DNA of 64,000 bases from an uncultured Verrucomicrobiota bacterium (GCA_903873945.1 CAIQQM010000291.1:20386-84385), one strand, 5' to 3'. Positions 34,704 through 61,937 are shown, numbered from the stretch's first letter. The notes: generated by a model from the letters alone, not told the origin. Program-made: numbers and translations.

Positions 34704-36233
34704 TTACTTCATCAAAGACGTGATATGCCGGAACAGGCTTGTCGGCTCGATGAAGCTGCGGTGGCCCATAATAGTGCAGGCTTCCGCTCCGACGACGTTC
34801 GCGATAAAACCGAGCACCTGGGGCGGCACGCTCAAGGCCGCGCAAGGGGCTGTAAGGCCCAGCACGGCATCTCCCGCGCCGACGCGGTCCACGACGCGGA
34901 TGGCAAACGCGGGCACGTGGAAAGTGCCTTGTTCACGGTCATGAACCAAGCAACCGGAGGCGCCGCGCGTCACGAGGAAGTTTTTCGTTGAGATTTTACG
35001 GGCGATACCTTCAGCCAGGCCCCGCAGGTCGCCGCTGGCTTTGCGGGCGTCGAGGCGGACTTCGGGATCCCCGATAGAGACAAAATCGGCGCGCGGGTAT
35101 TTTGAGATGGTGTTGAAGCCTTTGTTGCCGGCATTGGCCTGAGTGTTGACGGCCAGGAATTTGGATTTCTTGCAGACTAATTCCACGCCCCGGTCAGTCA
35201 TCAAGCCGTGGCCATAATCGGCGACCACCACCAGGTCAAATTGTGGGGCCAGCCGTTCCAGCGCGGAGCAGAACTCCGCCTCCGCCTCGGCTGGCATGGC
35301 GTCATTGCGCATCACATAGACCTCAAAGAGCTTGGCTGAGAGATATTCCTCGAGAAACCGGCGTTTGATGATCGTCGGCGCACCCGCCACCCGGACGAAT
35401 TGAGGCGTGATGTTCTTATTCAGTTTGGAGAGGATGAAATCCTCGCACGAATTGATCTGCCCAACCGAACTGAGAAGGGTGACATTGTCGCAAAAGTTCG
35501 AGATGTGATTGGCAATGGCCGGCGCGCCGCCGGCGTATTGCTCGGTTCGATTATGCAGGGCGGCCAGCACCGGTTCCTTGCCGGATTTGCCCATCACCGA
35601 GCAAAACTGGTATTCGTCGATAATGGTTTCCCCCACAATGAGCACCTTAAGTTTGCGAATGGCCTGAAGGTAGCCGACGATCTCTTCCGGAGTGTGGCGC
35701 ATGCGGAACTGCTCGAGGAACGCCTTGGTTTCCGTGGAAAAAACGTCCGTAAACCGGTTAATGAGGGCCGACGCGCTAAAGGTTTCCTCATCGGTGAGCA
35801 CGAGTTGCCCGCCAGTCGCTTTGACGGCATTCTCCTCTTTGTCGATGGCATCGGTATGGTCGCGTTTTCCCGCCTCGCGCACGATGCCTTTCACATAGAA
35901 CGAAGGCCGGAGCCGTTCTATGGTTTCCACCGCCGTAGGCCATTCATTGATGGCGACAAAATCGACACAGGCAAGGGAAGCCAGGGCTTCCGCACGCAAA
36001 CGTTCGGGAAAGGCGGGGCGATGGGGTCCTTTGTTGACGAACCGGTCGGGGGTAATCGTCACGACGAGCAAATCGCCTAACTTGCGGGCCGCTTCAAGAT
36101 GCTTGATGTGTCCGATATGCAACAGGTCAAAAACTCCGTGGCAGTGCACGGCCCTCTTCCCTTCGGCTCGAAGTACTGCCAGGGTTTTGGCCAGGTCCTC
36201 GATCGGTCTTATCTTGCGCTCGGTCGTGTCCAT
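34704..36233 (-). CDS. bifunctional sugar-phosphate nucleotidyltransferase (N) / PfkB-family sugar kinase (C), HldE-like with reversed domain order
   Basis: The N-terminal domain has HCHGVFDLLHIGHIKHLEAARK (HxGH) and FYVKG. The C-terminal domain has VNTQANAGN and VDRVGAGDAVLG (PfkB signature). I chose the ATG at 36233 (MDTTERK); the 116 upstream codons look non-coding. Confidence 0.8.
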   Translation of the reverse strand: MDTTERKIRPIEDLAKTLAVLRAEGKRAVHCHGVFDLLHIGHIKHLEAARKLGDLLVVTITPDRFVNKGPHRPAFPERLRAEALASLACVDFVAINEWPTAVETIERLRPSFYVKGIVREAGKRDHTDAIDKEENAVKATGGQLVLTDEETFSASALINRFTDVFSTETKAFLEQFRMRHTPEEIVGYLQAIRKLKVLIVGETIIDEYQFCSVMGKSGKEPVLAALHNRTEQYAGGAPAIANHISNFCDNVTLLSSVGQINSCEDFILSKLNKNITPQFVRVAGAPTIIKRRFLEEYLSAKLFEVYVMRNDAMPAEAEAEFCSALERLAPQFDLVVVADYGHGLMTDRGVELVCKKSKFLAVNTQANAGNKGFNTISKYPRADFVSIGDPEVRLDARKASGDLRGLAEGIARKISTKNFLVTRGASGCLVHDREQGTFHVPAFAIRVVDRVGAGDAVLGLTAPCAALSVPPQVLGFIANVVGAEACTIMGHRSFIEPTSLFRHITSLMK

Positions 36234-36515
36234 CTCGTGTTCCGGTCTAAAGAATTTAAAGATTACTTTGGCAGAGGAAAGCACTTTCTTCCCTCGCATT
36301 CCGAAATTGGGCCTATGAGACCTTGCCGTCGAGACTGAGGCGATCAAATGGACCAGCCCACTCGCTGCTGCTCTCCTGCGCCTCCAAGTGCAGAATAGCT
36401 GCTGCCAGTGCGCAGCCGTGAAACACAGGCTCAGGTTTTCCCCAGGAGCCTGCAGAATAGTTTTCCAACAGGCGTTTTCTTGAACCGGAGGGACTTTCAG
36501 TGTAACTAAGGCCCC

Positions 36516-37784
36516 ATGTCGCAGCCAGTTGATTTCCCACCAGTGCCCCCGGCGAGAAAACATGCCTCCTTTTTCCGCCAAAGTGGCTGGCTAATGATTT
36601 CAGGAATCGGCGGGGGCGTTCTGATGTGGGCGGTCCATTTTCTGTCCAAGGCCATTCCAGCCGGCGAATACGGTCTTTTTGGAGCCCTGATGGCCGTGGG
36701 GATGTGCATCCCAGCCATGCCGCTGCAAATGATCCTCGCGCAACAGACGGCCAAAGCCATCGCCTGTCACCGGGAGGGCGAGCTCTCAGGCATGATCCGC
36801 TTGCTTTGGCGTTGGACCTTCGTTCTCTGGTTCGTTGGTGCCGTCGTCGTGCTGATATTTCAAGAGAGCATTCTGAAGGGATGGGAAGCCTCGAGCCCTG
36901 CGGGACTCTGGTTAATGCTCCCCGTCCTGCTGCTTTCGATTTGGGGGCCGATGTTTGGAGGGATTCTCCAAGGACAACAGAACTTTCTTTGGCTTGGCTG
37001 GTCTGGAATTTTCAACGCTTTTTTCCGGTTGTCGGTTGCCGCATTTGCGGTGCTGGCCTTGGGTGGACGGGCCGCGGGCATGGTGACAGGCGTCCTCGTT
37101 GGCGCGGGGATCTCCCAGGCGATCGCATTCTGGCAGACGCGCTCCCTTTGGCTGCTTCCGCCCCTGCCTTTCGACTGGCGCGGCTTGCTCCGCCAGGTCA
37201 TCCCATTGGTCCTCGCCTGCGCCGCTTTCCAATTCCTGTTCACCGCTGATACAATGTTTGTGAAGACGTATTTCAGCCCGGATGAAGTCGGGTTCTATGT
37301 GGGCGCCGGAACTTTGTCGCGCGCGCTCATGTGGCTGGTTGGCCCTCTGGCAACAGTGATGTTCCCGCGAATCGTCCACCACTCGGCCAAAGCTGAAAAA
37401 ACCGACTTGATGGGGCTCGTGCTTTTGGGAACGGCCATTATGGCAGTGGCCGGGGCGATCTGTCTTTCGGTGCTGGGTCCGTGGATAATCAAACTCGTTT
37501 ACAAGCAAAGCTACGTGGCGGTCGCCTCTGCCGTGCTGCCTTGGTATGCCGCGGCGATGGTTCCGCTCGCGCTCGCTAATGTGCTGCTCAATAATCTGAT
37601 GGCTCGGAGCTTGTTTCGGGCAGTGCCGGCGCTGTGTCTGTTGGCTGTGGCCTACGGTTTGGCGCTCACCCACTTTCACCACAGTCTGGTGAGCGTGCTC
37701 AAGACGTGTGGCGTGTTCAATCTCCTACTCCTGGCCGTCTGCGCCTCGTTTACCTGGGTGAAGCCGTCTGTAAGATGTTCTTGA
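36516..37784 (+). CDS. polysaccharide/oligosaccharide flippase (Wzx/MOP superfamily)-like membrane protein
   Basis: About 12 predicted TM helices at 422 aa. Transcribed divergently from the sugar operon and followed by a GT2. The family call rests on topology and context. Confidence 0.65.
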   Translation: MSQPVDFPPVPPARKHASFFRQSGWLMISGIGGGVLMWAVHFLSKAIPAGEYGLFGALMAVGMCIPAMPLQMILAQQTAKAIACHREGELSGMIRLLWRWTFVLWFVGAVVVLIFQESILKGWEASSPAGLWLMLPVLLLSIWGPMFGGILQGQQNFLWLGWSGIFNAFFRLSVAAFAVLALGGRAAGMVTGVLVGAGISQAIAFWQTRSLWLLPPLPFDWRGLLRQVIPLVLACAAFQFLFTADTMFVKTYFSPDEVGFYVGAGTLSRALMWLVGPLATVMFPRIVHHSAKAEKTDLMGLVLLGTAIMAVAGAICLSVLGPWIIKLVYKQSYVAVASAVLPWYAAAMVPLALANVLLNNLMARSLFRAVPALCLLAVAYGLALTHFHHSLVSVLKTCGVFNLLLLAVCASFTWVKPSVRCS

Positions 37785-37833
37785 GTTACGTTTCCGACTT
37801 TCTTAGCGTGCCGCCAATGAACTTCCTTTTGGC

Positions 37834-38925
37834 ATGATGCCGGAGACCGTGAGACAACCCCTCCTCCTCACCCCACCGACCTCCGTTCAGCCGCCACCAC
37901 TGGCAAGCATTATAGTCCTCAACTATAATGGCGCAGCCTGGCTCGAGCGCTGTCTGGCGTCCCTTCACGCGCAAACCATATTCAGCCAGATTGAAATCAT
38001 TGTCGCCGATAACGCTTCTCCGGACCATTCCGACCGCTTGGCGGCGGAATTGATGCGCGACTGGCCGAACGGTCGCGTCATCCAGAATGGCTGCAACCCC
38101 GGCTTTGGCGGGGGAAGCAACCTGGCCGTCAAGCAGACAACGGGACGCTACCTGTTTTTCCTGAACCCGGATGTTTGGTTGGAGCCTGATTGTCTCGAGC
38201 GGCTCTGCCAGGAGTCGGAGCGGGCAAGAGTCGGCGCAGCCAGTAATCTGGTCCTGGATTACGAAACCAACGATGTGCAAGCCCGCGGCGCTGTGGGCTT
38301 TGACCTCTTTGGCTTCATGGTCGGGCCGAAGGCTGGGCAAGTCCCGGAACGCCTGTTTGCCTCCCAGGGTTTTTTCTTCCTGCGGCGCGACTTCTTCGAA
38401 AGGATCGGCGGCTACGACGAGACCTTCTTCCTTTACTGCGAAGAATTCGATCTTTCCTGGCGGATCCAGACTGCAGGAGAAGAAATCGTCCATGTCCCCT
38501 CCAGCCGCATGCACCATCGCGGGGCGGCCGGCGAGAATCCAAAAGGCGGGACCAAACTAGTGGAGCTCCGCACGAGCGATTCCAAACGCTTTTATGCCAA
38601 CCGCAATCACTTGCTCACGATCCTGAAAAATGCCCAGCACGTCTTGTTGCTTTTGCTGCTGCCGGCTTTGGCCTTGATCCTGGCGGAGGGGTTGGTCGGC
38701 GCGCTCCTGCTGCGGCGCTGGTCTTTCTTATCACGCAGTTGCCTGGACGCCCTGGTGGGTTGCTGGCGTCTGCGCGGGCACGTGAGAGCCGAACGCCGCC
38801 GCATTCGCGCGTTCCGACGCTGCGGTGATTTCTATCTGCTGCGGTTCCTATCCTGTCGCTTCAGTCGCTGGCATGAATTCAAGAAAGTGCTCAAGCTGGG
38901 CCTGCCCAAGGTGGATCAGCGGTAA
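37834..38925 (+). CDS. glycosyltransferase family 2 (rhamnosyltransferase-like) with C-terminal membrane segment
   Basis: ASIIVLNYNGAAWLERCL...IIVADNASPDHS...FLNPDVW...CEEFDLSWR. Confidence 0.85.
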   Translation: MMPETVRQPLLLTPPTSVQPPPLASIIVLNYNGAAWLERCLASLHAQTIFSQIEIIVADNASPDHSDRLAAELMRDWPNGRVIQNGCNPGFGGGSNLAVKQTTGRYLFFLNPDVWLEPDCLERLCQESERARVGAASNLVLDYETNDVQARGAVGFDLFGFMVGPKAGQVPERLFASQGFFFLRRDFFERIGGYDETFFLYCEEFDLSWRIQTAGEEIVHVPSSRMHHRGAAGENPKGGTKLVELRTSDSKRFYANRNHLLTILKNAQHVLLLLLLPALALILAEGLVGALLLRRWSFLSRSCLDALVGCWRLRGHVRAERRRIRAFRRCGDFYLLRFLSCRFSRWHEFKKVLKLGLPKVDQR

Positions 38926-41229: not shown

Positions 41230-42144
41230 TTACTTTGGAAAATCGGGGTGTCGTCCAAGCCGACCGCGGAGGCCGTCCCAGAGGCCCCGGAAGGCGCAGG
41301 ACAATTTGTGGCCTCTTTGATGCTCAAGGATGGCTATCCGGCACAGTTCAAGAAGCATCCGCGACCAATCCCACAAGACCCAAGCCGGAAACGAGGCCAG
41401 GTATCGGAGGTGCAGCACCGTCCGGTTCCGAATGTTGTAATAGTAACGCCAGGCTGAGTGGATCCGGAACGAAATGCTCAAGCCAAGAAACCTGCGCACT
41501 TGTTTGTCTCCCAGTTCGTGGCGCAGAACCACCTGCGGGGCACAAAGAATGCGGAAGCCCCGTTTCCGCAAACGCAAACAGAAATCCGTGTCCACATAGT
41601 CGATGAACAGAGGCTCGTCATAGAAACCGATTCTCGAAAAAATGTCCGCCCGGATCAGACAGCCCGAGTTTGAAGCTCCCTTGACGAATGTAAAATCACG
41701 CCTTGCCACATTTTGGGCGCCGCCGTCCGGATCGCAATGGGGCACCCATTGGCCGGGAACAATCATCCCAACTTTTTCAGGCTCGGGGCAAATCGCGTAG
41801 GCACGTAATAGATCCTCGAAATAGCGCGCAGTTACCGCGCTGTCCTGATCGAACGTGGCCACCCATTGGCACCCGGCGTCCAAGGCGCGGCGAATCCCAA
41901 TGTTCAAGGCTGCCGCGATCCCCAGGTTCTCCTCGTTCCTCACGAGATGCACCCCAGTCAGATGTCCGACTTGTTCGACGATCTCCAGCGATGTCCCCGC
42001 CGACCCGTTATCCACCACGATGATTTGCCCCACCTGACTGCAAAGACTCCGGAGGTTGTTCAACAGAGCGGCGTCCGGTTCGAACGTGACCACGACCGCT
42101 GTGCAAACTGCGGGGGAAATGGCTTGGTTGGTGGGCGGTTGCAT
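41230..42144 (-). CDS. glycosyltransferase family 2 (rhamnosyltransferase-like)
   Basis: CTAVVVTFEPD...IIVVDNGSAGTS...ATFDQDS...DYVDTDFCLR. I chose the ATG at 42144. Confidence 0.85.
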   Translation of the reverse strand: MQPPTNQAISPAVCTAVVVTFEPDAALLNNLRSLCSQVGQIIVVDNGSAGTSLEIVEQVGHLTGVHLVRNEENLGIAAALNIGIRRALDAGCQWVATFDQDSAVTARYFEDLLRAYAICPEPEKVGMIVPGQWVPHCDPDGGAQNVARRDFTFVKGASNSGCLIRADIFSRIGFYDEPLFIDYVDTDFCLRLRKRGFRILCAPQVVLRHELGDKQVRRFLGLSISFRIHSAWRYYYNIRNRTVLHLRYLASFPAWVLWDWSRMLLELCRIAILEHQRGHKLSCAFRGLWDGLRGRLGRHPDFPK

Positions 42145-42245
42145 TGGCTTCGTTATTCGCCAGCCAGATATAAGCAATGCTCGGAAACGAGTCGAACTTT
42201 CTCTTGAGAGAGTCATTTCTCGCAGATAGTCTCTCCCCGTTTTTA

Positions 42246-44951
42246 ATGATTATGCCACCAAGCAGCCCATCCCTATCCGACGCTAAGAACAGGAAATTAT
42301 ATCTCGCCACCCTCGGCCTGCTCGCTTTGGTGCTGGGCCTGCTCTTTGCGCGGAGTTTTGGGTCCGGCTGGGTGCTGTTTTCCAACGACGGACCGCTGGG
42401 CGGCATGGTGGCAGCTCAGAACCGCATGCCGGGCACCCTTACCGGGTTCTGGTCCGATACCAATTCCATTGGTGTGAGTGGCGGAATGCAGCCCCCCAGC
42501 ATTAGCAATCTGCTCCTGTTGTTGCTGGGGCCTGTCGGCTTTGCCAAGTTCATCGCGCCGTGCACTCTGTTCCTGCTGGGGCTTTGCGCCGCTTTCGCTT
42601 TTCGACGTTCGAATTTTGCTCCGCTGGCCTGCGTTCTGAGTGGGCTGGCCGCAGCCTTGAACATGGATTTTCTTGGGGCCGCCGCCTGGGGTGTCTGTGC
42701 ACAGGTGGTTTGTTTCAGCATGAACTTCGTGGCTGTGGGATTGCTTATCAGCAAGGAGCCGCGAGGGAAATGGGTGCGTACAGCGCTCGCCGGCCTGGCT
42801 ATCGGGATGGGCGTTATGGAAGGAGCGGATATCGGCGCTCTTTTCAGCATGCTGGTGGCGGCATTCGTGCTTTACAACGCCTGGGCCGGGACGGAGGGAA
42901 CTCCTGGCAAACGTTTTAGGATTGGCATCGGGCAGGTTGTAGTCGTGGCCGCATGCGCCATGTTCATCGCCATCAGCACGGTGACCACGTTAATCTCAAC
43001 CAACATCAAAGGGGTAGCCGGCACCCAGCAGGATTCCCAGACAAAGGCGCAGCGCTGGGACTTCGCCACACAATGGAGCCTGCCAAAGCGGGAGGCGCTG
43101 AATCTCATCATCCCCGGCCTTTTCGGCTATAGGATGGATACGCCATTGCAGTTGCCTGAGTTCATGCAGGAAACGTATAAGGGCGGCAATTACTGGGGGG
43201 CAGTCGGCCGCGACCCTGCGTGGGATCGTTACTTCGCAAGCGGCAGGCAAGGTGCGCAGCCTTCGGGTTTCATGCGCTTCTCCGGTGGTGGTAATTACGC
43301 CGGCATCCTGGTTGTGCTCATCGCGCTGTGGGCGGGCGCTCAATCGCTTCGCCGCCATGGCTCAATCTTTTCGGAAACCGCCCGGAGGCACATCTGGTTC
43401 TGGCTCGGCGTGGTGGTCATTTCATTGTTGTTCGCTTTCGGACGCTTTGCCCCGTTCTATCAGTTTCTCTACGCCCTCCCCTATTTCTCAACAATTCGCA
43501 ATCCGGGCAAGTTCACCCATCTGTTGACCTTCGCCTTGTTAATGCTTTTCGCCTACGGCGTTGACGGCTTATGGCGCGGTTATTTGCAAACGACTGGCCG
43601 CAGCACTTCAAATTTGAAAGCCCGCCTCAAGGGTTGGGGATCCGGCCTTTCTGGATTCGACCAGCGCTGGATTCTTGGGTGCACCGCAGGTCTGGGCGCA
43701 AGCCTGCTCGGCTGGCTGTTTTATGCGGCCTCGCGTCAATCCTTCGAGCAATACTTGCAGACAGTTCAGTTTGACGAAAGCATGGCTCATGCGATAGCGG
43801 GTTTCAGCATCACCCAGGTCGGATGGTTCATTCTCTTTTTTGCGCTCTCGGCCAGCCTGTTGACCCTGGTTCTGAAGGGCACATTCGCCGGCAGGCGAGC
43901 GAAGTGGGGAGGCGTCCTCCTCGGCCTGCTCCTAGTGGTGGACCTCAGCCACGCCAATCTGCCTTTACTCATTTATTGGGATTACAAAGACAAATATGAA
44001 ACGGACGCGCCAAATCCCGTCATCGAGATTTTGCGCCAGAAACCTTATGAGCATCGCGTGGCGATGTTGCCTTTCCGGGCGCCGCCTCAATTCAGCCTTT
44101 TCGACCAGCTTTACCGGATCGAGTGGGCGCAGCACCATTTCTATTACTACAACATCCAATCGCTTGACATTGTCCAAATGCCGCGGATGCCGCAGGATTT
44201 GATGGCCTATGAGTCAGTCCTGTTCTTTGACGGAACCACCAACCGCCTGCACCTCATAACACGCCGCTGGCAACTGACGAATACGCGCTATCTCCTCGGG
44301 GCTGCAGGTTTCCTGGATGTCCTCAATCAACAAATCGATCCCGTCCAGCACCGGTTCCGCATCGCTGCCGCGTTCGACATCGTCCCCAAGGCTGGCTCGA
44401 GAAACGCGACGCAGTTGACGGACCTGACCGCGGCGCTCAAGCCGGACGGCCAGTATGCATTGTTCGAATTTACCGGTGCTTTGCCCCGCGTAAAGCTCTT
44501 CGCCAACTGGCTCGTCAGCACCAATGATGACACAACGCTTAAAAAGCTCGCCAGCCCTTCTTTTGATCCCGCAGAAACCGTCCTGGTCGCCGAACCGCTG
44601 CCGCCAGCCAGCGGAACCAGCAAAACCGCCGGAACTGTGGACTTTACCAGTTACAGTCCCAAAAAAATCGTCCTGCACGCCCAGGCTGCCGTCTCTTCCG
44701 TACTCCTGCTAAATGATAAATTTGATCCCAACTGGCAGGTCACGGTGGATGGCAAACCCGTTAAACTGCTTCGCTGCAACTACATCATGCGAGGCGTTTA
44801 TTTGGAACCCGGCTCGCACACCATCGAGTTCGCATTTCGACCTTCACTCAGGGCGCTTCGCATCACTCTCGCGGCCATCGCACTCGGGCTGCTGCTTATT
44901 GGCGTCCTCGCCTTTCGCCTCGGGAAGGGCAAACCTGTCCCAGCACCCTGA
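42246..44951 (+). CDS. large polytopic membrane protein, YfhO/GT-C-like putative glycan-processing enzyme
   Basis: About 900 aa with more than 10 N-terminal TM helices, a large soluble extracytoplasmic region and a final C-terminal TM. This architecture resembles YfhO-type GT-C proteins. The start (42177, 42246 or 42252) is uncertain. Confidence 0.55.
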   Translation: MIMPPSSPSLSDAKNRKLYLATLGLLALVLGLLFARSFGSGWVLFSNDGPLGGMVAAQNRMPGTLTGFWSDTNSIGVSGGMQPPSISNLLLLLLGPVGFAKFIAPCTLFLLGLCAAFAFRRSNFAPLACVLSGLAAALNMDFLGAAAWGVCAQVVCFSMNFVAVGLLISKEPRGKWVRTALAGLAIGMGVMEGADIGALFSMLVAAFVLYNAWAGTEGTPGKRFRIGIGQVVVVAACAMFIAISTVTTLISTNIKGVAGTQQDSQTKAQRWDFATQWSLPKREALNLIIPGLFGYRMDTPLQLPEFMQETYKGGNYWGAVGRDPAWDRYFASGRQGAQPSGFMRFSGGGNYAGILVVLIALWAGAQSLRRHGSIFSETARRHIWFWLGVVVISLLFAFGRFAPFYQFLYALPYFSTIRNPGKFTHLLTFALLMLFAYGVDGLWRGYLQTTGRSTSNLKARLKGWGSGLSGFDQRWILGCTAGLGASLLGWLFYAASRQSFEQYLQTVQFDESMAHAIAGFSITQVGWFILFFALSASLLTLVLKGTFAGRRAKWGGVLLGLLLVVDLSHANLPLLIYWDYKDKYETDAPNPVIEILRQKPYEHRVAMLPFRAPPQFSLFDQLYRIEWAQHHFYYYNIQSLDIVQMPRMPQDLMAYESVLFFDGTTNRLHLITRRWQLTNTRYLLGAAGFLDVLNQQIDPVQHRFRIAAAFDIVPKAGSRNATQLTDLTAALKPDGQYALFEFTGALPRVKLFANWLVSTNDDTTLKKLASPSFDPAETVLVAEPLPPASGTSKTAGTVDFTSYSPKKIVLHAQAAVSSVLLLNDKFDPNWQVTVDGKPVKLLRCNYIMRGVYLEPGSHTIEFAFRPSLRALRITLAAIALGLLLIGVLAFRLGKGKPVPAP

Positions 44952-54650: not shown

Positions 54651-55775
54651 ATGCGGCTGCTCGACCGTTACCTTTTGCGCGAATTGCTAGTCCCGCTTGG
54701 CTACTGCCTTTGCGGCTTTTTGATTTTTTGGATTTTCTCTGACCTCTTCAACGAGTTAGGCGAGTTTCAGAGGAAAAAACTCCTGATCAGCGACGTTGGT
54801 GAATATTACCTGATTACAACACCGGGATTTCTCGTCGTCGTGCTTCCCATCGCGCTCTTGCTGGCTCTGCTTTACACCCTGACCACCCACGCGCGCCACC
54901 ACGAAATCACCGCGATCCGGGCGGCGGGCGTCAGTCTCTGGCGGTTGAGCGCTCCCTACTTTGCTTGCGGGCTTGTCGCCAGCTCGCTTTTGTTCATTGT
55001 CAACGAATTCTGGGTGCCGGATAGCGCAGAGGCCGCGGAACAGGTCAAAAGTCGCCACCAACCACGCGCGCCTGACGCGCCCGGACGAAATCAGGTCCGT
55101 GAGCTGGCTTTCAAGAACGAAGCGGCCGGGCGCATGTGGCGCATTGGAACGTATAACTTCGAAACCGGGGAGATGACCAACCCGGAAGTGTTCTGGACGG
55201 AGGCGGACGGCTCGCCGCGCTGGCTCAGGGCCTCCCATGCTCTCCGAAGAGCTGGCGCCTGGACGTTCTACAACGTCCGGGAATGGAAGGAACCGCCGGG
55301 AACAAGTTCGCTTTTGGCGCCTTGGCTGCAAACGAACCTACTGGTAATCCCGGAGTTTTCCGAAACACCCGAGCAAATCAAAAGCGAGATCAAAATCAGC
55401 AACAGCATCACCCTGCGAGGCGCGAAAAAGGCTGATATTCCGCTCGTTGAAATACTGAACTACCTGCGCTTGCATCCAAGGCCGTCATCCTCGAACGCGT
55501 CCTGGCTGCATACGAAATTCCAGGGCCGGCTGGCAGCGCCCTGGACCTGTCTCGTGGTCGTACTGATTGCAATCCCCTTCGGAGCGGCTTCCGGCCGGCG
55601 CAATGTCTTCGTGGGCGTGGCGAGCAGTATTTTGATTTGTTTCATCTATTTTATCCTGCAGCAACTCGGCCTTGCTCTCGGAACCGGCGGTTACGTGCCG
55701 CCCTGGCTGGCGGCGTGGTTTCCCAACCTGTCGTTCGGGATAGCGGGACTCTGGATGACGGCACGGGTCAGATAA
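54651..55775 (+). CDS. LptF/LptG-family LPS export permease
   Basis: MRLLDRYLLRELLVPLGYCLCGFLIFW... is the YjgP/YjgQ N-terminus. Topology is three TM segments, a periplasmic beta-jellyroll region, then three TM segments. Confidence 0.8.
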   Translation: MRLLDRYLLRELLVPLGYCLCGFLIFWIFSDLFNELGEFQRKKLLISDVGEYYLITTPGFLVVVLPIALLLALLYTLTTHARHHEITAIRAAGVSLWRLSAPYFACGLVASSLLFIVNEFWVPDSAEAAEQVKSRHQPRAPDAPGRNQVRELAFKNEAAGRMWRIGTYNFETGEMTNPEVFWTEADGSPRWLRASHALRRAGAWTFYNVREWKEPPGTSSLLAPWLQTNLLVIPEFSETPEQIKSEIKISNSITLRGAKKADIPLVEILNYLRLHPRPSSSNASWLHTKFQGRLAAPWTCLVVVLIAIPFGAASGRRNVFVGVASSILICFIYFILQQLGLALGTGGYVPPWLAAWFPNLSFGIAGLWMTARVR

Positions 55776-55964
55776 GTTCTGAAACTGCCTCTGAATGCGG
55801 CCGAGGCAATGCCTGATGGCGGCGCGCCGACCATCACCTCACGCCCCATCCGAATGCTGCCTGAATTTCTAATGCAGCTTGTCATCCAACAGGCTGAAGG
55901 GGTAGTTTTGTGCCCGTTGTAGACACACAAGAGAATTCGTAAACATTGCCGCCAGCTTTCGACC

Positions 55965-57245
55965 ATGACACGCAAGCACACTTCGTCCAAGCCAGCTATT
56001 TCAGTCATGGTATTGGGTGTTGGCGCGTTCGCCCATAGCACCGCGCAGATTCTCAAAGACGCCGGGGTGAGCGTCGCGACCTACCTCACGCGAAATTACG
56101 GTCATTATCCGCCTTCCCTGGCCGGACCGGTCTACAGCCAGGAACAATTTCCATCTCCTTGTCCGCTGCTCAAGGAGAAGGCTGTGGATCTCGTGGTCCC
56201 CATGTCCATCGACTGGGCACAAGCCCCCTGGAAAGACGAATTGCTCAGCCTGGGGATCCCAATCTTTTGCCCCACCCATGAAGGCATGAGGATCGAGCGG
56301 GAACGGGATTTTGCCCGCCAGCTTTGTCAGCGGTTCAAGATTCCATTTCCACAGTCTCACGTGGCGCGCAACCGTTTGGAAGCCGAGGAAATTCTGGGGA
56401 AATACCCCCGGGCCTTTGTCATCAAGAACCCCTTGTGCTCGCCGACCAGCCCGGTGCATACGGTGTTGTGTGAATCACTGGCGGACACCCGCTCATGGCT
56501 CAAGCATGTCAATTACGCGGAGGGCGTTTTTTTGCAGGAATACCTCGGCCCGCGCGAGGCCGGACACATCGCCCTAGTCAGCGGCGGGGAAATTTGCTCG
56601 CTCGTGACCAACCAGGAATACAAACGCGCTTTCGCCGGCAACATGGGGATTGTCGCCGGCGCTCCGCTCGGCGGCCTCGTCGAGTGGGATCCGGCGGACA
56701 AATACGGGCTCGCGCGAGAATTGATCCATCCCCTACTGCCCTGGTTCCGCGAGGTGAAATATCACGGCCCGATCCAAGTGACCGCCGTGCAGCGAAACGG
56801 GAAATGGCATGTCATTGAGTACAATATCCGAATTGGCGTCACTTCCGGAGCGATGCTTTTACGCATGCTCGCCAACCCGATTGAAACGCTGCTCCAAACC
56901 GGGCGAGACGAGAAACTCGCTCCCCGATTCGTAAAGAACCTTAATTTCGGGTGTTCGGTCACTTTGGCCGGGTATGCCTATCCCCACGTCCAGGTTCGCG
57001 GACCTCAATTGCCGGTGGAGGTCGGGGGATCTTTCAGTTGCGACGTCTGGTGGAACGAGGTCGCGCGCGACGGAAATGACTCGCTCGTGTCCACCGGCCA
57101 TCGTATCGCCGATGTAATCGCATTTGGCTCCGTACTGGACGAAGCTATTGCCAAAGCCTACGCGAACATCCGCAAAATCCGCAGCCTCGGCAGCTATTAT
57201 CGTGAAGATATTGGCCGGAGCCTCTGGCCGCCCGGAAACCCTTGA
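55965..57245 (+). CDS. divergent PurD-like (phosphoribosylamine-glycine ligase fold) ATP-grasp ligase
   Basis: Co-linear with PurD N/A/C domains: ERERDFARQLCQRFKIPFP, FVIK, LQEYLGPREAGHIALVSGG, IEYNIRIG, GHRIADVIAFGSVLDEAIAKAYANIRKI. The Gly-rich PurD loops are altered: GVGAFAHS for GSGGREHA, and AGNMGIVAGAPLGG for GDxGPNTGGMG. Confidence 0.7.
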   Translation: MTRKHTSSKPAISVMVLGVGAFAHSTAQILKDAGVSVATYLTRNYGHYPPSLAGPVYSQEQFPSPCPLLKEKAVDLVVPMSIDWAQAPWKDELLSLGIPIFCPTHEGMRIERERDFARQLCQRFKIPFPQSHVARNRLEAEEILGKYPRAFVIKNPLCSPTSPVHTVLCESLADTRSWLKHVNYAEGVFLQEYLGPREAGHIALVSGGEICSLVTNQEYKRAFAGNMGIVAGAPLGGLVEWDPADKYGLARELIHPLLPWFREVKYHGPIQVTAVQRNGKWHVIEYNIRIGVTSGAMLLRMLANPIETLLQTGRDEKLAPRFVKNLNFGCSVTLAGYAYPHVQVRGPQLPVEVGGSFSCDVWWNEVARDGNDSLVSTGHRIADVIAFGSVLDEAIAKAYANIRKIRSLGSYYREDIGRSLWPPGNP

Positions 57246-57281
57246 AATAATTTAACCCCATCCGCCTAAACGAGCTCTGAA

Positions 57282-58529
57282 ATGAATACTTTGTTCCCCG
57301 ATATTATTGATTCAACAAGCTCCCCTTCCGACGCTTTGCCCTCGGTTAACCGGCCGGCAGCACCGGCTTCAACACCTGAGAACTTTCTTTCCTTGAATTA
57401 TCCCCTGCGGCCCGCCTGGGTTGAAATCGACCTGAACAAACTCAAACGGAACTTTGAGCTCATTCATCGGGACAAGCCGAAAGGCTTGCAAGTTGTTTCC
57501 GTGGTAAAGGATGAAGGGTATGGCCATGGCGCATTGGCCGTGGCCAGGACCGCTTTGGCTTGTGGCGCCAGCTTTCTTGCAATAAGCACCGTCGAAGAGG
57601 CCATGGCTTTGCGGGACCGGGGCATCCCCACACGCTTGCTGTTGCTTGGCGACCGCCAGGAGGCAGAGTTCCCCTGGTGCCTCGCCCACGATCTGACCTG
57701 TTGTGTCAGTGAGCCGCAATCAATCGCAAAACTCGGCCAACTGGCCGCCCGCGCCGGCAAACGGATCCCGGTCCATCTCAAGATTAACACGGGCATGAAC
57801 CGCTACGGCGTGCGTTGGGATGAGGTCGCCTCTCTCGTTGATCTGATCGCTTCGACCAAATCACTCTTCCTCGAGGGCGCGCTAAGCCACTTTGCGCAAT
57901 CCGACGAGACGGACAAGACTTTCGCTTTACTGCAACTGGCTCATTTTAACGAAGCGCTCGACATCATTTCTGAGCGGGGTTGCTCGCTGAAACTCAGGCA
58001 CTTGTGCAACAGCGGCGGTTTTCTCGATCTCCCCCAAGCCCATTTCGACATGGTTCGGCTCGGCATCCTGCCACTGGGCGTCTTTCCTTCTTCGGTTTGC
58101 CGCCGCATCCCGGGCATAGAACCTGTCATGTCGGTTAAAGCTCGCATTGCCGCCATTCAAAACCTCCAACCCGGCGATACCGTCGGCTACGGAATGCGCT
58201 TTAAGGCCGAATCTCCGCGACGTATCGCGGTTTTGCCGATTGGTTACGGGGACAGCTTCCCGCGCGTCCGCAACCAGGGTTGCGCGCTCATCCACGGCCG
58301 CCGGGCTCCCCTGGTTGGCGGTGTTGCCATGGACGCGATCACCGTGGACATCACCGACATTCCCACCGCCCAATTGTGGGACGAGGCCGTCATTATGGGC
58401 CGGCAAGGCGCAGAGGAAATTACCGTGCACGAGGTTGCGCGGCTGAAGAACTCGGTTTCGTACGATATCCTCGTCGGTTGGCGCACCCGGTTGCCTCGCC
58501 TCTACGTCGGCCAGGATGTTCTCCCATGA
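57282..58529 (+). CDS. alr: alanine racemase
   Basis: RPAWVEIDL, VVKDEGYGHGA (PLP Lys), and YGDSFPR/HGRRAPLVGGVAMD. There is an ~40-aa N-terminal extension. An in-frame TTG at 57393 (MNYPLRPAW...) is an alternative start. Confidence 0.9.
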   Translation: MNTLFPDIIDSTSSPSDALPSVNRPAAPASTPENFLSLNYPLRPAWVEIDLNKLKRNFELIHRDKPKGLQVVSVVKDEGYGHGALAVARTALACGASFLAISTVEEAMALRDRGIPTRLLLLGDRQEAEFPWCLAHDLTCCVSEPQSIAKLGQLAARAGKRIPVHLKINTGMNRYGVRWDEVASLVDLIASTKSLFLEGALSHFAQSDETDKTFALLQLAHFNEALDIISERGCSLKLRHLCNSGGFLDLPQAHFDMVRLGILPLGVFPSSVCRRIPGIEPVMSVKARIAAIQNLQPGDTVGYGMRFKAESPRRIAVLPIGYGDSFPRVRNQGCALIHGRRAPLVGGVAMDAITVDITDIPTAQLWDEAVIMGRQGAEEITVHEVARLKNSVSYDILVGWRTRLPRLYVGQDVLP

Positions 58530-59329
58530 AACTGCTTTTCTCCGAAACCAAAGCTGATTATGGACATTATATTTTCCCCTATGCTATCTGGGCGTTTCCC
58601 GAGGCGGGGGAAAAACCGGGTGATCTCTTCAATCAAGGATTCCTCCCCTCATCCCGTGATCTTGACCGGTTTTATCTTTGCCGCCAGGTGCGGGTTTCCC
58701 TGAAACGGCATCGCCTCTCTTCGGAAAACCGGCGCATCTTGCGCAAGGGCGCCGGGATTACCGCCACGCTGGTTCCGCGCGCGGAATTCGATTTTACTCC
58801 ACAACGCCGCGAGTTTTATAAGACCTACGCGGACATCAAATTCGGTAAGGACGTCATGTCCTATGAGCGGCTCGATGCGTTGTTCGGGGGGAAAATCACG
58901 TCGCATTTGCTCATGTTCACCGACACCCGTTCCGGCGCCGAGGTGGGCACAGTCACGCTCTACCTCGAGCCCAACTCGCTGGCCTATTATTATTACGCCT
59001 TTTACGACCTTAACTACTACAGCCGAAATCTCGGCATGTTCATGATGACTTCAGCGATCTCGTTCTTCGCCGAGCGCAAGTTCAACTTTCTTTATCTCGG
59101 CTCCTGCTACCTGAAGAACGCCCTCTACAAAACCCAATTCGTTGGCGCCGAGTTTTTCAATGGCGTATGCTGGTCCGCGAATCTTGAAGAATTGAAGTAC
59201 CTCATCCGCCGGGATCGGCACGAACTGCGCCAGCATTTGCTCGAGACCGACGAGTACCGGGAGGCTTTTTACGACGGCGATCTCGCGCCGCTCGTTTCCA
59301 GCAGCGCCTTTCGCGTGCATATCAAGTGA
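58526..59329 (+). CDS. Bpt/ATE-like aminoacyl-tRNA-protein transferase homolog
   Basis: ATGA overlap with the alr stop. NQGFLPSSRDLDRFYLCRQVRVSLKRHRLSSENRRILRKG parallels GFRRSG...C..C...R.....F..S.S.RR. LAYYYYAFYD...SRNLGMFMMTSAISFFAERKFNFLYLGSCY...LYKTQF parallels the ATE_C core. Confidence 0.65.
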   Translation: MKLLFSETKADYGHYIFPYAIWAFPEAGEKPGDLFNQGFLPSSRDLDRFYLCRQVRVSLKRHRLSSENRRILRKGAGITATLVPRAEFDFTPQRREFYKTYADIKFGKDVMSYERLDALFGGKITSHLLMFTDTRSGAEVGTVTLYLEPNSLAYYYYAFYDLNYYSRNLGMFMMTSAISFFAERKFNFLYLGSCYLKNALYKTQFVGAEFFNGVCWSANLEELKYLIRRDRHELRQHLLETDEYREAFYDGDLAPLVSSSAFRVHIK

Positions 59330-59339
59330 GCTTCGGCCA

Positions 59340-60476
59340 TCAACACTTCTGCAGCGTCCCGTCTCTCTGAAGCCGCATCTTCTGCCCGCGCCATTCGATG
59401 TGATTGCCACCGAATGCCGCCACCCAAATAGCCGTTTGCAGCAGGTCCTTGATCGGCACGAGCCATGAGTAAAGATAGTGGTTTCGCGCTCCGGTCAACT
59501 TTTGCTGCAAGTGCGCCGCGGTGGCCATGCGCAGCCCCAGGCAACCCAGACAGAATACCAGCACAAGTCCCGAGGGATTTACAGCAAGCCAGAGCACCGG
59601 CCAAAGGGTAGCGTTGCTCAAAATGCTGAAAAAATACGGCGCCGGCTGGCAGACCCGGATCGTACGCGCCCACCGGAGCTGATGGGTCCACACCGCAGAC
59701 CAGTCCATAGGCTCCGACCAGCATTCCACAACCACCGGCGACAGAGCGATTCGCTGCCCGCCGCGCACAATTCGGTTCCCCAACTGGTAATCGTCAGCCA
59801 GACAATTCATCAGCGCCGCGAAACCGCCAATCTTCTCAAGCTGCTCACGCCGCACCGCCATCACCGCGCCCAGGGCAAAATCCATCGGCTTAAGGCTATT
59901 AGCCTGCAACACCTGGCTCCAAAAATCCGCGTTGATGGCCACCGCTTCCCACTGCATCGCCAGAGTGGTGGGGTTGGCCAGCCGATAGAAGCAATTCACC
60001 AGACCTGTTTCCTGGTTGCGCAGCGGCGCGACCACATTCGCCAGGAAATCCGGCGTCACCCGGACATCCGCATCGCTGACGATCAGGATGTCATGCCTTG
60101 CCGCCCGGGCCAGCTCCACCAGTTTCGAAACCTTGGAATTCGCGCCCGGCGGAGGCCCGCACACAATTAATTCCGCGTCAATTCCCGGATTTTCCCGAAG
60201 AAGGTTGCGGACGGTTTCGCAAACCGGGTCTGCCGCCGAAGCGACACCGAAAAGAATCTGCAGCGGCCCGGGGTAGTTCTGGGCGAACCAGCTTCTCAAG
60301 CACGCTTCGGCATGAGCATCATGTCCCTTCAGCGGCTTGAGCAACGTGACCGCCGGCGCGAATGAATGCGTGCCCGCGCGCTCATGCAAAGGAAAGCGCC
60401 GCGCGACAAACCATTGCCACAGCATCAGGACCAGGCTCAAGACCGCCAAAAAACCGAGGATTGCACTCAAGAACAC
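59340..60476 (-). CDS. glycosyltransferase family 21-like (ceramide glucosyltransferase / HpnI-like)
   Basis: N-terminal TM, then VTLLKPLKGHD...LQILFGVASAADP...NSKVSKL...ILIVSDADVRV...QLRWARTIR, and C-terminal TMs. GTG start at 60476 with AAGGA 8-12 nt upstream. The rest of the 644-aa ORF was rejected. Confidence 0.7.
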   Translation of the reverse strand: MFLSAILGFLAVLSLVLMLWQWFVARRFPLHERAGTHSFAPAVTLLKPLKGHDAHAEACLRSWFAQNYPGPLQILFGVASAADPVCETVRNLLRENPGIDAELIVCGPPPGANSKVSKLVELARAARHDILIVSDADVRVTPDFLANVVAPLRNQETGLVNCFYRLANPTTLAMQWEAVAINADFWSQVLQANSLKPMDFALGAVMAVRREQLEKIGGFAALMNCLADDYQLGNRIVRGGQRIALSPVVVECWSEPMDWSAVWTHQLRWARTIRVCQPAPYFFSILSNATLWPVLWLAVNPSGLVLVFCLGCLGLRMATAAHLQQKLTGARNHYLYSWLVPIKDLLQTAIWVAAFGGNHIEWRGQKMRLQRDGTLQKC

Positions 60477-60587
60477 GTCCGGTTCCTTAACAGAGAGCGC
60501 CTCCGCCGCAAGCGGATTCTGCGGGCCAATTTTCCCGGAGCGGATTTTGCTCGCCGCTGGTTCCGCCGGTTGTATAGGTTCCTTTCG

Positions 60588-61937
60588 ATGCTCAATTACA
60601 TTTGGCTTGGGCTGATTTTGCTGGCCGTCATCATCGGCGGCTGCACCGACAATCTCAAGGCGGTGGCCGACCAGAGCTTCGAGATGGCGAAGTTTGCCGT
60701 GCTGAATACGGCCTTTCCGCTCATCGGCATCATGACGCTCTGGCTGGGAGTGATGCGGCTGGCCGAGTGCTCCGGGATGGTGACTTTGCTGGCGCGCGCA
60801 TTGCGGCCGCTCCTGCGCCGCCTCTTTCCGGATGTCCCCGCCGAACACCCGGCCATGGGCTCCATGCTGATGAATGTCGCGGCCAATATGCTCGGGCTTG
60901 GCAACGCCGCCACCCCGCTCGGGCTTCGCGCCATGAAAGATCTTGAATCCCTCAATCCGCGGCCCGGCACGGCCACTAACGCGATGTGCACCTTCCTTGC
61001 CATCAACACCAGTTCGGTGCAACTCATCCCCGTCACCGCCATCGCCATCCTCGTCGCAAACCGGTCCGCGAATCCCACCGCCATCGTCGGCACCGCGCTG
61101 GTTGCGACAGTCTGCGCCGCTGTCTCGGGCGTCACCATGGCGAAACTCCTTTCGCGCCTGCCCGTGTTCCGGCTGCCGCCAAAACCCCTCGCGACGCCTG
61201 CTCCCCAGGACGGAAACCCCCTGGCAACCGGGCCGGAAACCTCCTTTCCTTTGAAAAACGCCGCCGGCCTCCAACCGCTAAAGTGGTGGGGCGCCGCCTC
61301 GCTTGGCGTTCTTGGTTTGTTTTTCTTCTGGTTCTTCCTGCGATCGGCATTTCCTGCAATTCTCGGAATCGAAATGCCGCAAGAGGCCACCGGGCAAAAC
61401 GCCTTCGTGCGAATCGTGGCTGCCATTTCGAAGCTCCTCATCCCTTTGCTCCTCGCCATTGTCCCGCTCTACGCGGCGCTACGGCGGGTGAGTGTTTATG
61501 AAGAGTTCGTGGAAGGCGCCAAGGAAGGATTCAACGTCGCAATTCGCATCATCCCGTACCTGGTCGCCATTCTTGTGGCAATCGGAATGTTCCGCGCCGC
61601 CGGAGGCATCGACTGGCTGAGCCACGTACTCGCCCCCGTGCTGGCGGCGGTTGGCTTCCCGCCCGAGTTGCTGCCGCTGGCGCTGATGCGGCCGCTAAGC
61701 GGCAGCGGTTCGCTGGGTCTGTTCGCCGAGTTGGTCAAACAATGTGGCCCCGACAGCCTTATCAGCCGGATGGCTGGCACGCTTTACGGCAGCACCGAGA
61801 CCACTTTCTATGTCCTCGCCGTCTACTTCGGGGCGGTGGGCATTAAGAAAACCCGTTATGCCGTTTTGGCCGGCTTGACAGCGGATTTGGTCGGCATCGC
61901 CGCCTCAGTGATGGTTTGCCGGCTGGTCTTCGGGTAA
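60588..61937 (+). CDS. fused SpmA/SpmB-like nucleoside-recognition (Gate) domain membrane protein
   Basis: MLNYIWLGLILLAVIIGG... and NVAANMLGLGNAATPLGLRAM are SpmA-like. A Pro-rich linker follows, then a second Gate-like half (...LMRPLSGSGSLGLFAEL...). ATG at 60588. Confidence 0.7.
   Translation: MLNYIWLGLILLAVIIGGCTDNLKAVADQSFEMAKFAVLNTAFPLIGIMTLWLGVMRLAECSGMVTLLARALRPLLRRLFPDVPAEHPAMGSMLMNVAANMLGLGNAATPLGLRAMKDLESLNPRPGTATNAMCTFLAINTSSVQLIPVTAIAILVANRSANPTAIVGTALVATVCAAVSGVTMAKLLSRLPVFRLPPKPLATPAPQDGNPLATGPETSFPLKNAAGLQPLKWWGAASLGVLGLFFFWFFLRSAFPAILGIEMPQEATGQNAFVRIVAAISKLLIPLLLAIVPLYAALRRVSVYEEFVEGAKEGFNVAIRIIPYLVAILVAIGMFRAAGGIDWLSHVLAPVLAAVGFPPELLPLALMRPLSGSGSLGLFAELVKQCGPDSLISRMAGTLYGSTETTFYVLAVYFGAVGIKKTRYAVLAGLTADLVGIAASVMVCRLVFG

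Follow-up and report, generated by a model that had tools for sequence, protein, structure and literature searches.

Peptidoglycan cross-bridges are assembled by two groups of enzymes, in which ATP-grasp ligases add D-amino acids and Fem ligases of the GNAT fold add glycine or L-amino acids taken from aminoacyl-tRNA; the Fem enzymes are related to the arginyl and Leu/Phe transferases that act on proteins (PMC2922099). In the Gram-positive system formed by the D-aspartate ligase Aslfm, the aspartate racemase Racfm and the Fem/MurM/Bpp enzymes, a racemase and an ATP-grasp ligase are combined with a transferase of the GNAT/Fem superfamily. Genes of these same three kinds lie side by side in a 64,000-nucleotide (nt) stretch of DNA from an uncultured Verrucomicrobiota bacterium (GCA_903873945.1, CAIQQM010000291.1:20386-84385), which is called the window hereafter. 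The first, G1, encodes a ligase that appears to derive from PurD, the glycinamide ribonucleotide (GAR) synthetase of purine biosynthesis, and it is followed by genes for an alanine racemase (G2) and a putative aminoacyl-tRNA-dependent transferase (G3). The trio and the region preceding it are located as follows:

55776..55964, + strand: 189-nt intergenic region 5ˊ of G1 at the unit boundary, presumed promoter or leader
55965..57245, + strand: G1, PurD-derived ATP-grasp ligase, 426 amino acids (aa)
57282..58529, + strand: G2, alanine racemase of the pyridoxal phosphate-dependent Alr family, 415 aa
58526..59329, + strand: G3, putative aminoacyl-tRNA-dependent transferase with the ATE1/Bpt fold, 267 aa

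The trio itself is a conserved unit. Relatives of G1 were found in at least 420 species genomes when one genome for each GTDB species was scanned, and synteny was examined in the best 80 of 420 genomes, which are essentially all from Verrucomicrobiota subdivision 3 (Pedosphaerales/Limisphaerales). A census by local tblastn on these 80 subdivision-3 loci, 67 of them informative, showed G1, G2 and G3 with unchanged order and strand in 56 of the 67, and in none of the 67 was the G1-G2 pair present without G3. In the window, the trio is flanked by SufBC, LptF/G, a GT2/GT21 glycosyltransferase, a Gate-domain protein and Mrp, and these genes are not kept beside it elsewhere. Because order and strand are retained in this way while the flanks differ, the adjacency is far beyond chance. 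A packed arrangement of G1 (60 % identity), Alr (58 %) and G3 (60 %) is also present in a Caldithrix metagenome-assembled genome (MAG), and a KSB1 MAG carries G1, Alr and then an overlapping open reading frame (ORF) starting MKLLFSEYKSDYSNYIFPYAIWAIPE, which corresponds to G3. The first-pass annotation of the window, made from its sequence alone, had stated that its idea would fail if the adjacency were conserved in no relative, and this is clearly not the case.

Some loci carry only part of the unit. The G1-Alr pair stands without G3 in an Opitutae MAG, in a sister group recovered from metagenomes, in Alteromonadaceae and in a deep Bdellovibrionales-like clade, and in locus L093 a G3 gene directly follows G1 with no Alr between them. 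The genes occasionally inserted between members of the trio are variable. Across lineages, the identities of G1 and Alr drop in parallel (60/58, 50/46 and 35/38 %), and for this reason the two genes appear to have been inherited together. The commonest neighbours of the trio are Dus, a response regulator, an aconitase-family protein and ThiH, each at no more than 20 loci, together with ROK, and these reflect synteny at the level of lineages only.

Both the ORFs and the raw sequence bear out the tightly packed, co-directional layout that was first described, with a 36-nt gap between the G1 stop codon (TGA, 57243-57245) and the G2 start codon (ATG, 57282) and a 4-nt ATGA overlap of G2 and G3 at 58526-58529. 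The translational coupling of alr and G3 that had been read from this overlap holds in the window and in the KSB1 genome. However, it is not universal, since the median G2-G3 spacing in relatives is ~86 nt. No sigma-70-like site was detected in the 189-nt region 5ˊ of G1, and a promoter and terminator scan gave nothing over background. Likewise, an Rfam scan of 55600-59500 yielded no credible RNA family, including no purine riboswitch or other RNA leader.

The trio matches the Aslfm system in the logic of its operon. G1 is of PurD descent and has no known kinship to Aslfm, the transferase of the trio is ATE/Bpt-like, with a FemAB-like protein (PF04339) occurring only in the deep clade, and the hosts are diderm bacteria. 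A literature search found no described system that joins a PurD-like ligase, Alr and a transferase, nor any PurD-derived family of such a kind, in agreement with the first-pass annotation. The combination of a racemase with an ATP-grasp ligase for a D-amino acid and a transferase that depends on tRNA would here be built from other enzyme lineages, in diderm phyla.

Folds and motifs of the three proteins

The G1 protein has the four-domain N-B-A-C ATP-grasp architecture of PurD (EC 6.3.4.13; TIGR00877, PS00184). As had been claimed, it is co-linear with PurD across all domains. Specifically, residues 13-418 align to positions 2-421 of the 425 in the TIGR00877 purD model, at a score of 113.4 bits that falls below the cut-off of 288, and the Pfam domains GARS_A and GARS_C are matched at 29.9 and 39.6 bits. 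When an AlphaFold2 (AF2) model of G1 with a mean predicted local distance difference test (pLDDT) score of 86.9 was used in a Foldseek search, 15 PurD structures were returned with E values of 1e-28 to 1e-25 and template modelling (TM) scores of 0.70-0.77. Biotin carboxylases come next (1e-18), ten orders of magnitude weaker, and no characterised non-PurD enzyme is closer.

The residues that handle ATP are retained. In our alignment, the ATP-grasp core formed by K154, E198, K220, E285, N287 and R289 is invariant in the G1 family and in canonical PurDs. The roles of the PurD residues, including the ATP ligands and the glycine binders Asp212, Arg287 and Glu292, have been described (PMC8880213). 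On alignment with Aquifex aeolicus PurD (2YW2), the ATP ligands Lys143, Glu192 and Lys214 map to K154, E198 and K220, R289 occupies the Arg287 site, and E285, N287 and R289 are retained. The C-terminal YRxDIG motif is shared as well. Because the ATP lysines and glutamate, the E-x-N Mg site and the catalytic Arg are all kept, acyl-phosphate amide-ligase chemistry is expected for G1.

Four signatures of canonical PurD are replaced in G1:

GGREHA of canonical PurD: GAFAHS in G1
B-loop GLAAGKGV of canonical PurD: PLCSPTSPVHT in G1
GDxGPNTGGMG of canonical PurD: AGNMGIVAGAPLGG in G1
PROSITE PS00184 signature R[LF]GDPE: RIGVTSG in G1 (R289-I-G-V-T-S294)

The two altered loops that were quoted from the outset, GVGAFAHS and the replacement for GDxGPNTGGMG, are both found in G1, and all four replacements are invariant or nearly so across its family. 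GDPE is present in all canonical PurD representatives whose N terminus has GGREHA, and the consensus of the G1 family at the GDPE site is R[IL]GV[ST]xG. This motif is one of the hallmarks of the family, along with KNxxCSPxSPxHT, NQEYK and a C-terminal LWPP. Among the ligands for glycine, Asp212 is replaced by Glu218 and Glu292 by Ser294, and Arg287 alone is kept (R289). Additional PurD-like proteins of archaea have been judged not to be GAR synthetases from the loss of the PS00184 motif and a divergent N-terminal loop (PMC3261824). In contrast to PurD, G1 also has its genomic association with alr and not with pur genes. The sub-threshold score, the replaced motifs and glycine ligands, and a separate phylogenetic position (see below) uphold the earlier judgement that G1 is unlikely to be an orthodox GAR synthetase, and we consider an orthodox PurD very unlikely. 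On these sequence features, G1 looks like an active ATP-grasp amide ligase that gave up the substrates of PurD, in which case a scaffold from the core purine pathway would have been recruited to new amide-ligase chemistry.

Another ATP-grasp enzyme that is tied to alanine racemase is the D-alanine-D-alanine ligase Ddl. G1 differs from it in having the PurD-type architecture with a GARS_C domain, and no Pfam or NCBIfam match of G1 to Dala_Dala_lig_N or Dala_Dala_lig_C was obtained.

The G2 protein is predicted with little ambiguity to be an orthodox alanine racemase. It passes the TIGR00492 alr model (329.8 bits; cut-off 168) and matches Ala_racemase_N (197.7 bits) and Ala_racemase_C (129.1 bits) over their full lengths. 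Its top matches in the PDB are alanine racemases, the best solved relative being Bacillus subtilis Alr2 (5irp) at 237 bits. As called, G2 begins with a low-complexity N-terminal extension of ~40 aa (window 57282-57410; MNTLFPDIIDSTSSPSDALPSVNRPAAPASTPENF...) that precedes the start of the Alr domain at RPAWVEIDL. This extension is poorly or not conserved among orthologs, so the true start codon may be further downstream.

Relatives of G3 were recovered by fold, since a profile search against PDB sequences gave no match. With an AF2 model (pLDDT 85.1), the top 32 Foldseek matches are all ATE1 structures (E 1e-9 to 2e-5; query-based TM score, TMq, 0.47-0.59), led by human and yeast ATE1 (E 1e-9 to 1e-6; TMq ~0.58). 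These are followed by A-PGS/MprF, Sbb17/Sba18 and FemX, such that the structural neighbours are exclusively aminoacyl-tRNA-dependent transferases. Among them, Sbb17 and Sba18 are aminoacyl-tRNA-dependent peptide synthases of streptothricin-type pathways. The assignment of G3 to the aminoacyl-tRNA-protein transferase fold, which was part of the first-pass annotation, thus agrees with the model.

In sequence, G3 has weak but specific similarity to bacterial arginyl and leucyl transferase models over residues 52-216 (E 3e-10). Its match to ATE_C is sub-threshold (21.4 bits; gathering score 25), and all NCBIfam arginyltransferase models failed, with at most 39.8 bits against cut-offs of 170-358. 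The ortholog in locus L093 is just over the ATE_C threshold (25.2 versus 25). Compared with the ATE1/Bpt proteins (PF04376 plus PF04377) that are its best structural matches, G3 is much shorter at 267 aa, it gives no match to the Cys-rich ATE_N domain (PF04376), and its gene is linked to those of a ligase and a racemase. In addition, only two cysteines, C52 and C194, are invariant among 48 members of the G3 family. As judged from its model, G3 has the ATE/Bpt fold yet is no certified member of that family.

The ligase family and its divergent relatives

An exhaustive sequence search that covered 1.84 billion representatives showed the G1 family to be compact, with few full-length representatives at 50 % clustering identity, which are 65, 41, 40, 35, 34 and 31 % identical to G1. 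Canonical PurDs start at ~85 bits in this search, with 23-29 % identity. As judged from a neighbour-joining tree without bootstrap, which is indicative only, all proteins that carry the KNxxCSPxSPxHT, NQEYK, R[IL]GV[ST]xG and LWPP motifs form one monophyletic clade separate from the canonical PurDs. Across an order, sequence identity of G1 is 70-80 %. These data define a large, highly conserved and mis-annotated enzyme family, which occurs in Verrucomicrobiota that abound in soil and freshwater as well as in several further phyla.

Source databases label members of the family as 'phosphoribosylamine--glycine ligase' (including labels from the Prokaryotic Genome Annotation Pipeline, PGAP), 'GARS C domain-containing protein', 'hypothetical protein' or 'arginyltransferase'. 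For example, P0391, P0417, P0432 and Joint Genome Institute (JGI) entries carry the pipeline name 'phosphoribosylamine--glycine ligase', and relatives of G3 are called 'arginyl-tRNA--protein-N-Asp/Glu arginylyltransferase'. The PurD and arginylyltransferase names for relatives of G1 and G3 are likely over-annotations, and such errors would distort reconstructions of purine biosynthesis in MAGs.

Two further groups of entries came to light. Eleven MAGs (L014, L020, L042, L043, L050, L051, L063, L066, L071, L082 and L084) are named Bifidobacteriaceae, Bifidobacterium, Limnocylindrales, Methylomirabilota or Methylacidimicrobium, and their G1 proteins are 68-74 % identical to that of the window, with the full trio in most. 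These implausible labels are probably binning or taxonomy errors. Three PurD-like proteins (P0337, P0368 and P0369) have part-degenerate signatures (GNG/GDGR, FGTPGS/FGDPT and GDLGPxxA) and branch apart from both the canonical PurDs and the G1 family, and this group may be another neofunctionalised PurD lineage.

The deep clade is 35 % identical to G1 and tiny. Its two members, L004 and L007, are ~30 % identical to each other, and a metagenome scan gave the sister group mentioned above and no further deep-clade members. Both loci (L004, 7667-12393; L007, 7787-12339) contain the same four-gene cluster in AT-rich, Bdellovibrionales-like genomes. Besides the G1-like ligase and Alr, the cluster includes an aspartokinase-like kinase without ACT domains, which scores ~92 bits against cut-offs of at least 346 and on this evidence may act on a different substrate, and a divergently transcribed gene for a FemAB-like protein (PF04339, 249 bits). 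No direct sequence similarity was detected between G3 and the FemAB-like proteins of L004 and L007, and no aspartokinase-like homolog is present in the window. The ligase-racemase pair is therefore accompanied by a transferase of the Fem superfamily in two unrelated forms, ATE-like in the trio and FemAB-like in the deep clade.

Two lineages place the G1-Alr pair next to peptidoglycan genes. In L098 (299-4202), which belongs to a low-GC (39 %) lineage, a paralog of the MurC/Mpl family lies 40 nt upstream of G1-Alr, a position that ddl also often takes next to such ligases. This paralog falls below the cut-offs for both murC (252 bits versus 335) and mpl (216 versus 389), and it may be a dedicated UDP-N-acetylmuramic acid (UDP-MurNAc) ligase that works with G1 and Alr. 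In the Opitutae MAG (L002), the pair is found amid muropeptide-recycling genes, which encode an S13 DD-peptidase, an L-Ala-D/L-Glu epimerase-like protein, NagX and NagB/deacetylase.

Other paralogs of G1 keep the family motifs and are coupled to large STAND NTPases (AAA_16, NACHT or NB-ARC with TPR) instead of Alr. They occur in L005 (6351-12246) and L006 (6381-11311), at 39-41 % identity, and in L089 (5821-9470), at 63 %. The STAND gene overlaps the start of the G1-like gene by 4 nt in L005 and L006. A gene for a DAO-family (ThiO-like) oxidase comes after the paralog in L005, and the L006 paralog is surrounded by TIR, SIR2 and nSTAND1 genes and by fragments of diaminopimelate (DAP) epimerase, a setting that looks like a conflict or defence island. 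The PADLOC library, when run on G1, G3 and the loci of the STAND-coupled paralogs, gave no meaningful match.

The G1-Alr pair of Alteromonadaceae (L101, 8001-10372; 50 and 46 % identity) is located beside the nusA-infB-rbfA-truB-rpsO operon on a contig of ~2.5 Mb. This contig and Alteromonas sp. LMIT006 have identical S15 proteins. The cultured strain is a candidate carrier of G1, the cluster of which lists related metagenome assemblies only. This lineage might give a culturable experimental handle on the family.

Possible functions of the module

We tentatively propose, with somewhat less than even confidence, that the trio works as one module, in which two steps of different chemistry create an amide or peptide linkage that contains D-alanine. 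G2 would supply D-alanine. G1, having kept the ATP, Mg and acyl-phosphate machinery of PurD and swapped the elements that recognise glycine and phosphoribosylamine, would activate a carboxylate as an acyl phosphate for attachment to an amine, and one of these two partners would be D-alanine. G3 would then use an aminoacyl-tRNA to place a second amino acid, of the L configuration, on a free amine in the same acceptor or product. The likeliest target would be a peptidoglycan precursor, a muropeptide or another envelope peptide, making the module a diderm counterpart of the side-chain and cross-bridge synthesis of Gram-positive bacteria. The folds, the motifs lost and retained, the conserved linkage and the spread across phyla are observed; from these we infer that G1 uses D-alanine, that G3 depends on tRNA and that the target lies in the envelope or peptidoglycan.

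Alanine, in either the D or the L form, is suggested as the substrate of G1 by the conserved adjacency and co-divergence with Alr and by enzymes of D-amino-acid metabolism beside the paralogs. Indeed, the paralogs that lack Alr adjoin a DAO-family oxidase or DAP-epimerase fragments, which supports a linkage to D-amino-acid chemistry. For the target, the Mur-ligase paralog of L098 and the muropeptide-recycling neighbourhood in Opitutae point to peptidoglycan. It is possible, if rather doubtful, that the trio represents an undescribed pathway of envelope or peptidoglycan tailoring in Verrucomicrobiota subdivision 3, Calditrichota and KSB1, in which a PurD-derived enzyme installs a D-alanyl linkage and an enzyme of the ATE/Bpt family extends a non-protein acceptor by using aminoacyl-tRNA. 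To our knowledge, ATE/Bpt enzymes have so far been found only as transferases that act on protein N termini. If the proposal is true, G1 would be a new catalytic offshoot of PurD and G3 would provide the first non-protein substrate of the ATE/Bpt lineage, and a peptidoglycan or envelope target would mean an undescribed cell-wall modification in poorly studied diderm phyla.

Several observations weigh against this proposal. The presence of Ser294 in place of the glycine-binding Glu292 puts an alpha-amino acid as the acyl donor of G1 in doubt. G1 stands alone amid unrelated housekeeping genes in 11 of the 67 informative loci, and L089, L092 and L102 also carry it without Alr or G3 nearby. When 694 neighbouring ORFs from the 80 loci were clustered, no recurrent fourth gene or peptidoglycan-specific gene was found, with no family present at more than 20 loci. 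The hints of peptidoglycan each come from single lineages, G3 is structurally nearer to the protein-modifying ATE1 than to FemX, and the STAND-coupled paralogs suggest that the same chemistry has other uses. Moreover, interpeptide branches are unusual in diderm bacteria.

Other explanations must be weighed against the same observations. The module might instead make a soluble small molecule, such as a di- or tripeptide of D-alanine or an alanyl-amide that serves as a signal, osmolyte or antimetabolite, with G1 as an ATP-grasp enzyme of the L-amino-acid-ligase type and G3 as a tRNA-dependent peptide synthase like those known from natural-product pathways. We regard this as somewhat unlikely. 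The occurrence of Sbb17/Sba18 among the structural neighbours of G3, the self-contained nature of the trio, for which the 80 loci showed no envelope partner that recurs, and a patchy spread (Verrucomicrobiota, Calditrichota and KSB1) that fits a small transferable pathway all speak for it. However, neither exporters nor regulators nor resistance genes show a consistent link, the family is nearly universal in its order and strongly conserved there rather than sporadic, and some lineages hold it in housekeeping contexts. Protein modification is a quite improbable function, with G3 as an N-terminal aminoacyl transferase of the Bpt/ATE type in an N-degron-like process and G1 adding D-alanine or another residue to a protein terminus. 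ATE1 is the best structural match of G3, and the arginyl and leucyl transferase models are the best by sequence, but G3 remains below all curated cut-offs and its ATE_N domain was undetected. No ClpS, ClpA or aat gene of the N-degron pathway was seen among the neighbours of G3 in the loci examined, and the link to an alanine racemase has no obvious role in tagging. We also know of no enzyme of the PurD lineage that acts on proteins.

An unlikely reading, which we nevertheless place above protein modification, makes G1 a non-orthologous D-alanine-D-alanine ligase that is fed by Alr and replaces or adds to Ddl, with G3 or the FemAB-like protein then modifying the peptidoglycan precursor. The ligase is tightly and consistently located beside Alr, the packed MurC/Mpl-like, G1 and Alr genes of L098 mimic the common murC-ddl neighbourhood, and the deep-clade cluster joins an aspartokinase-like gene, which might relate to DAP supply, with G1-like and Alr genes. 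Conservation of 70-80 % across an order is also expected of an essential enzyme. Opposed to this are the absence of detectable similarity between G1 and the Ddl families, the STAND-coupled paralogs, which are hard to square with a housekeeping role, and the presence of the G1-Alr pair in Alteromonadaceae, a family with members known to carry ddlB. Furthermore, both ddl and alr are reported to be conserved throughout Verrucomicrobiota and to be essential in V. spinosum, in a study on the dcw genes of PVC (Planctomycetes-Verrucomicrobia-Chlamydiae) bacteria whose supplements list no Pedosphaerales or Limisphaerales, the orders of subdivision 3 (PMC12283558). A search with a hidden Markov model of canonical PurD and an approximate Escherichia coli DdlB query found no canonical purD or ddl in the window and 87 loci, which at 1.38 Mb rather than whole genomes is uninformative on their presence at the genome level; its matches were confined to the G1 family and a single biotin carboxylase. 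Finally, it is extremely improbable that G1 is a divergent but orthodox PurD whose neighbours have no functional meaning. The PurD fold and co-linearity, and the name given to members by some databases and PGAP, agree with this explanation. Against it stand the score of 113 bits versus the cut-off of 288, the family-invariant replacement of four signature motifs and two of three glycine ligands, an adjacency kept across phyla while the flanks vary, the lack of a purine riboswitch or RNA leader, and the coupling of paralogs to STAND NTPases.

Neighbouring genes in the window

Directly downstream of the trio and convergent with G3 is a GT2/Glyco_transf_21 gene (59340-61274, - strand) that encodes a ceramide-glucosyltransferase-like protein. 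The mechanical ORF is 644 aa in length, whereas gene callers report 361 aa on identical contigs. In its longer form, the ORF overlaps the start region of the Gate-domain gene on the opposite strand (60366-61937, + strand). Its position next to the trio recurs in only a few close relatives. With regard to base composition, the AT skew of the window is strongly negative at 36001-38000 (-0.20) and 42001-44000 (-0.18) and is near zero elsewhere.

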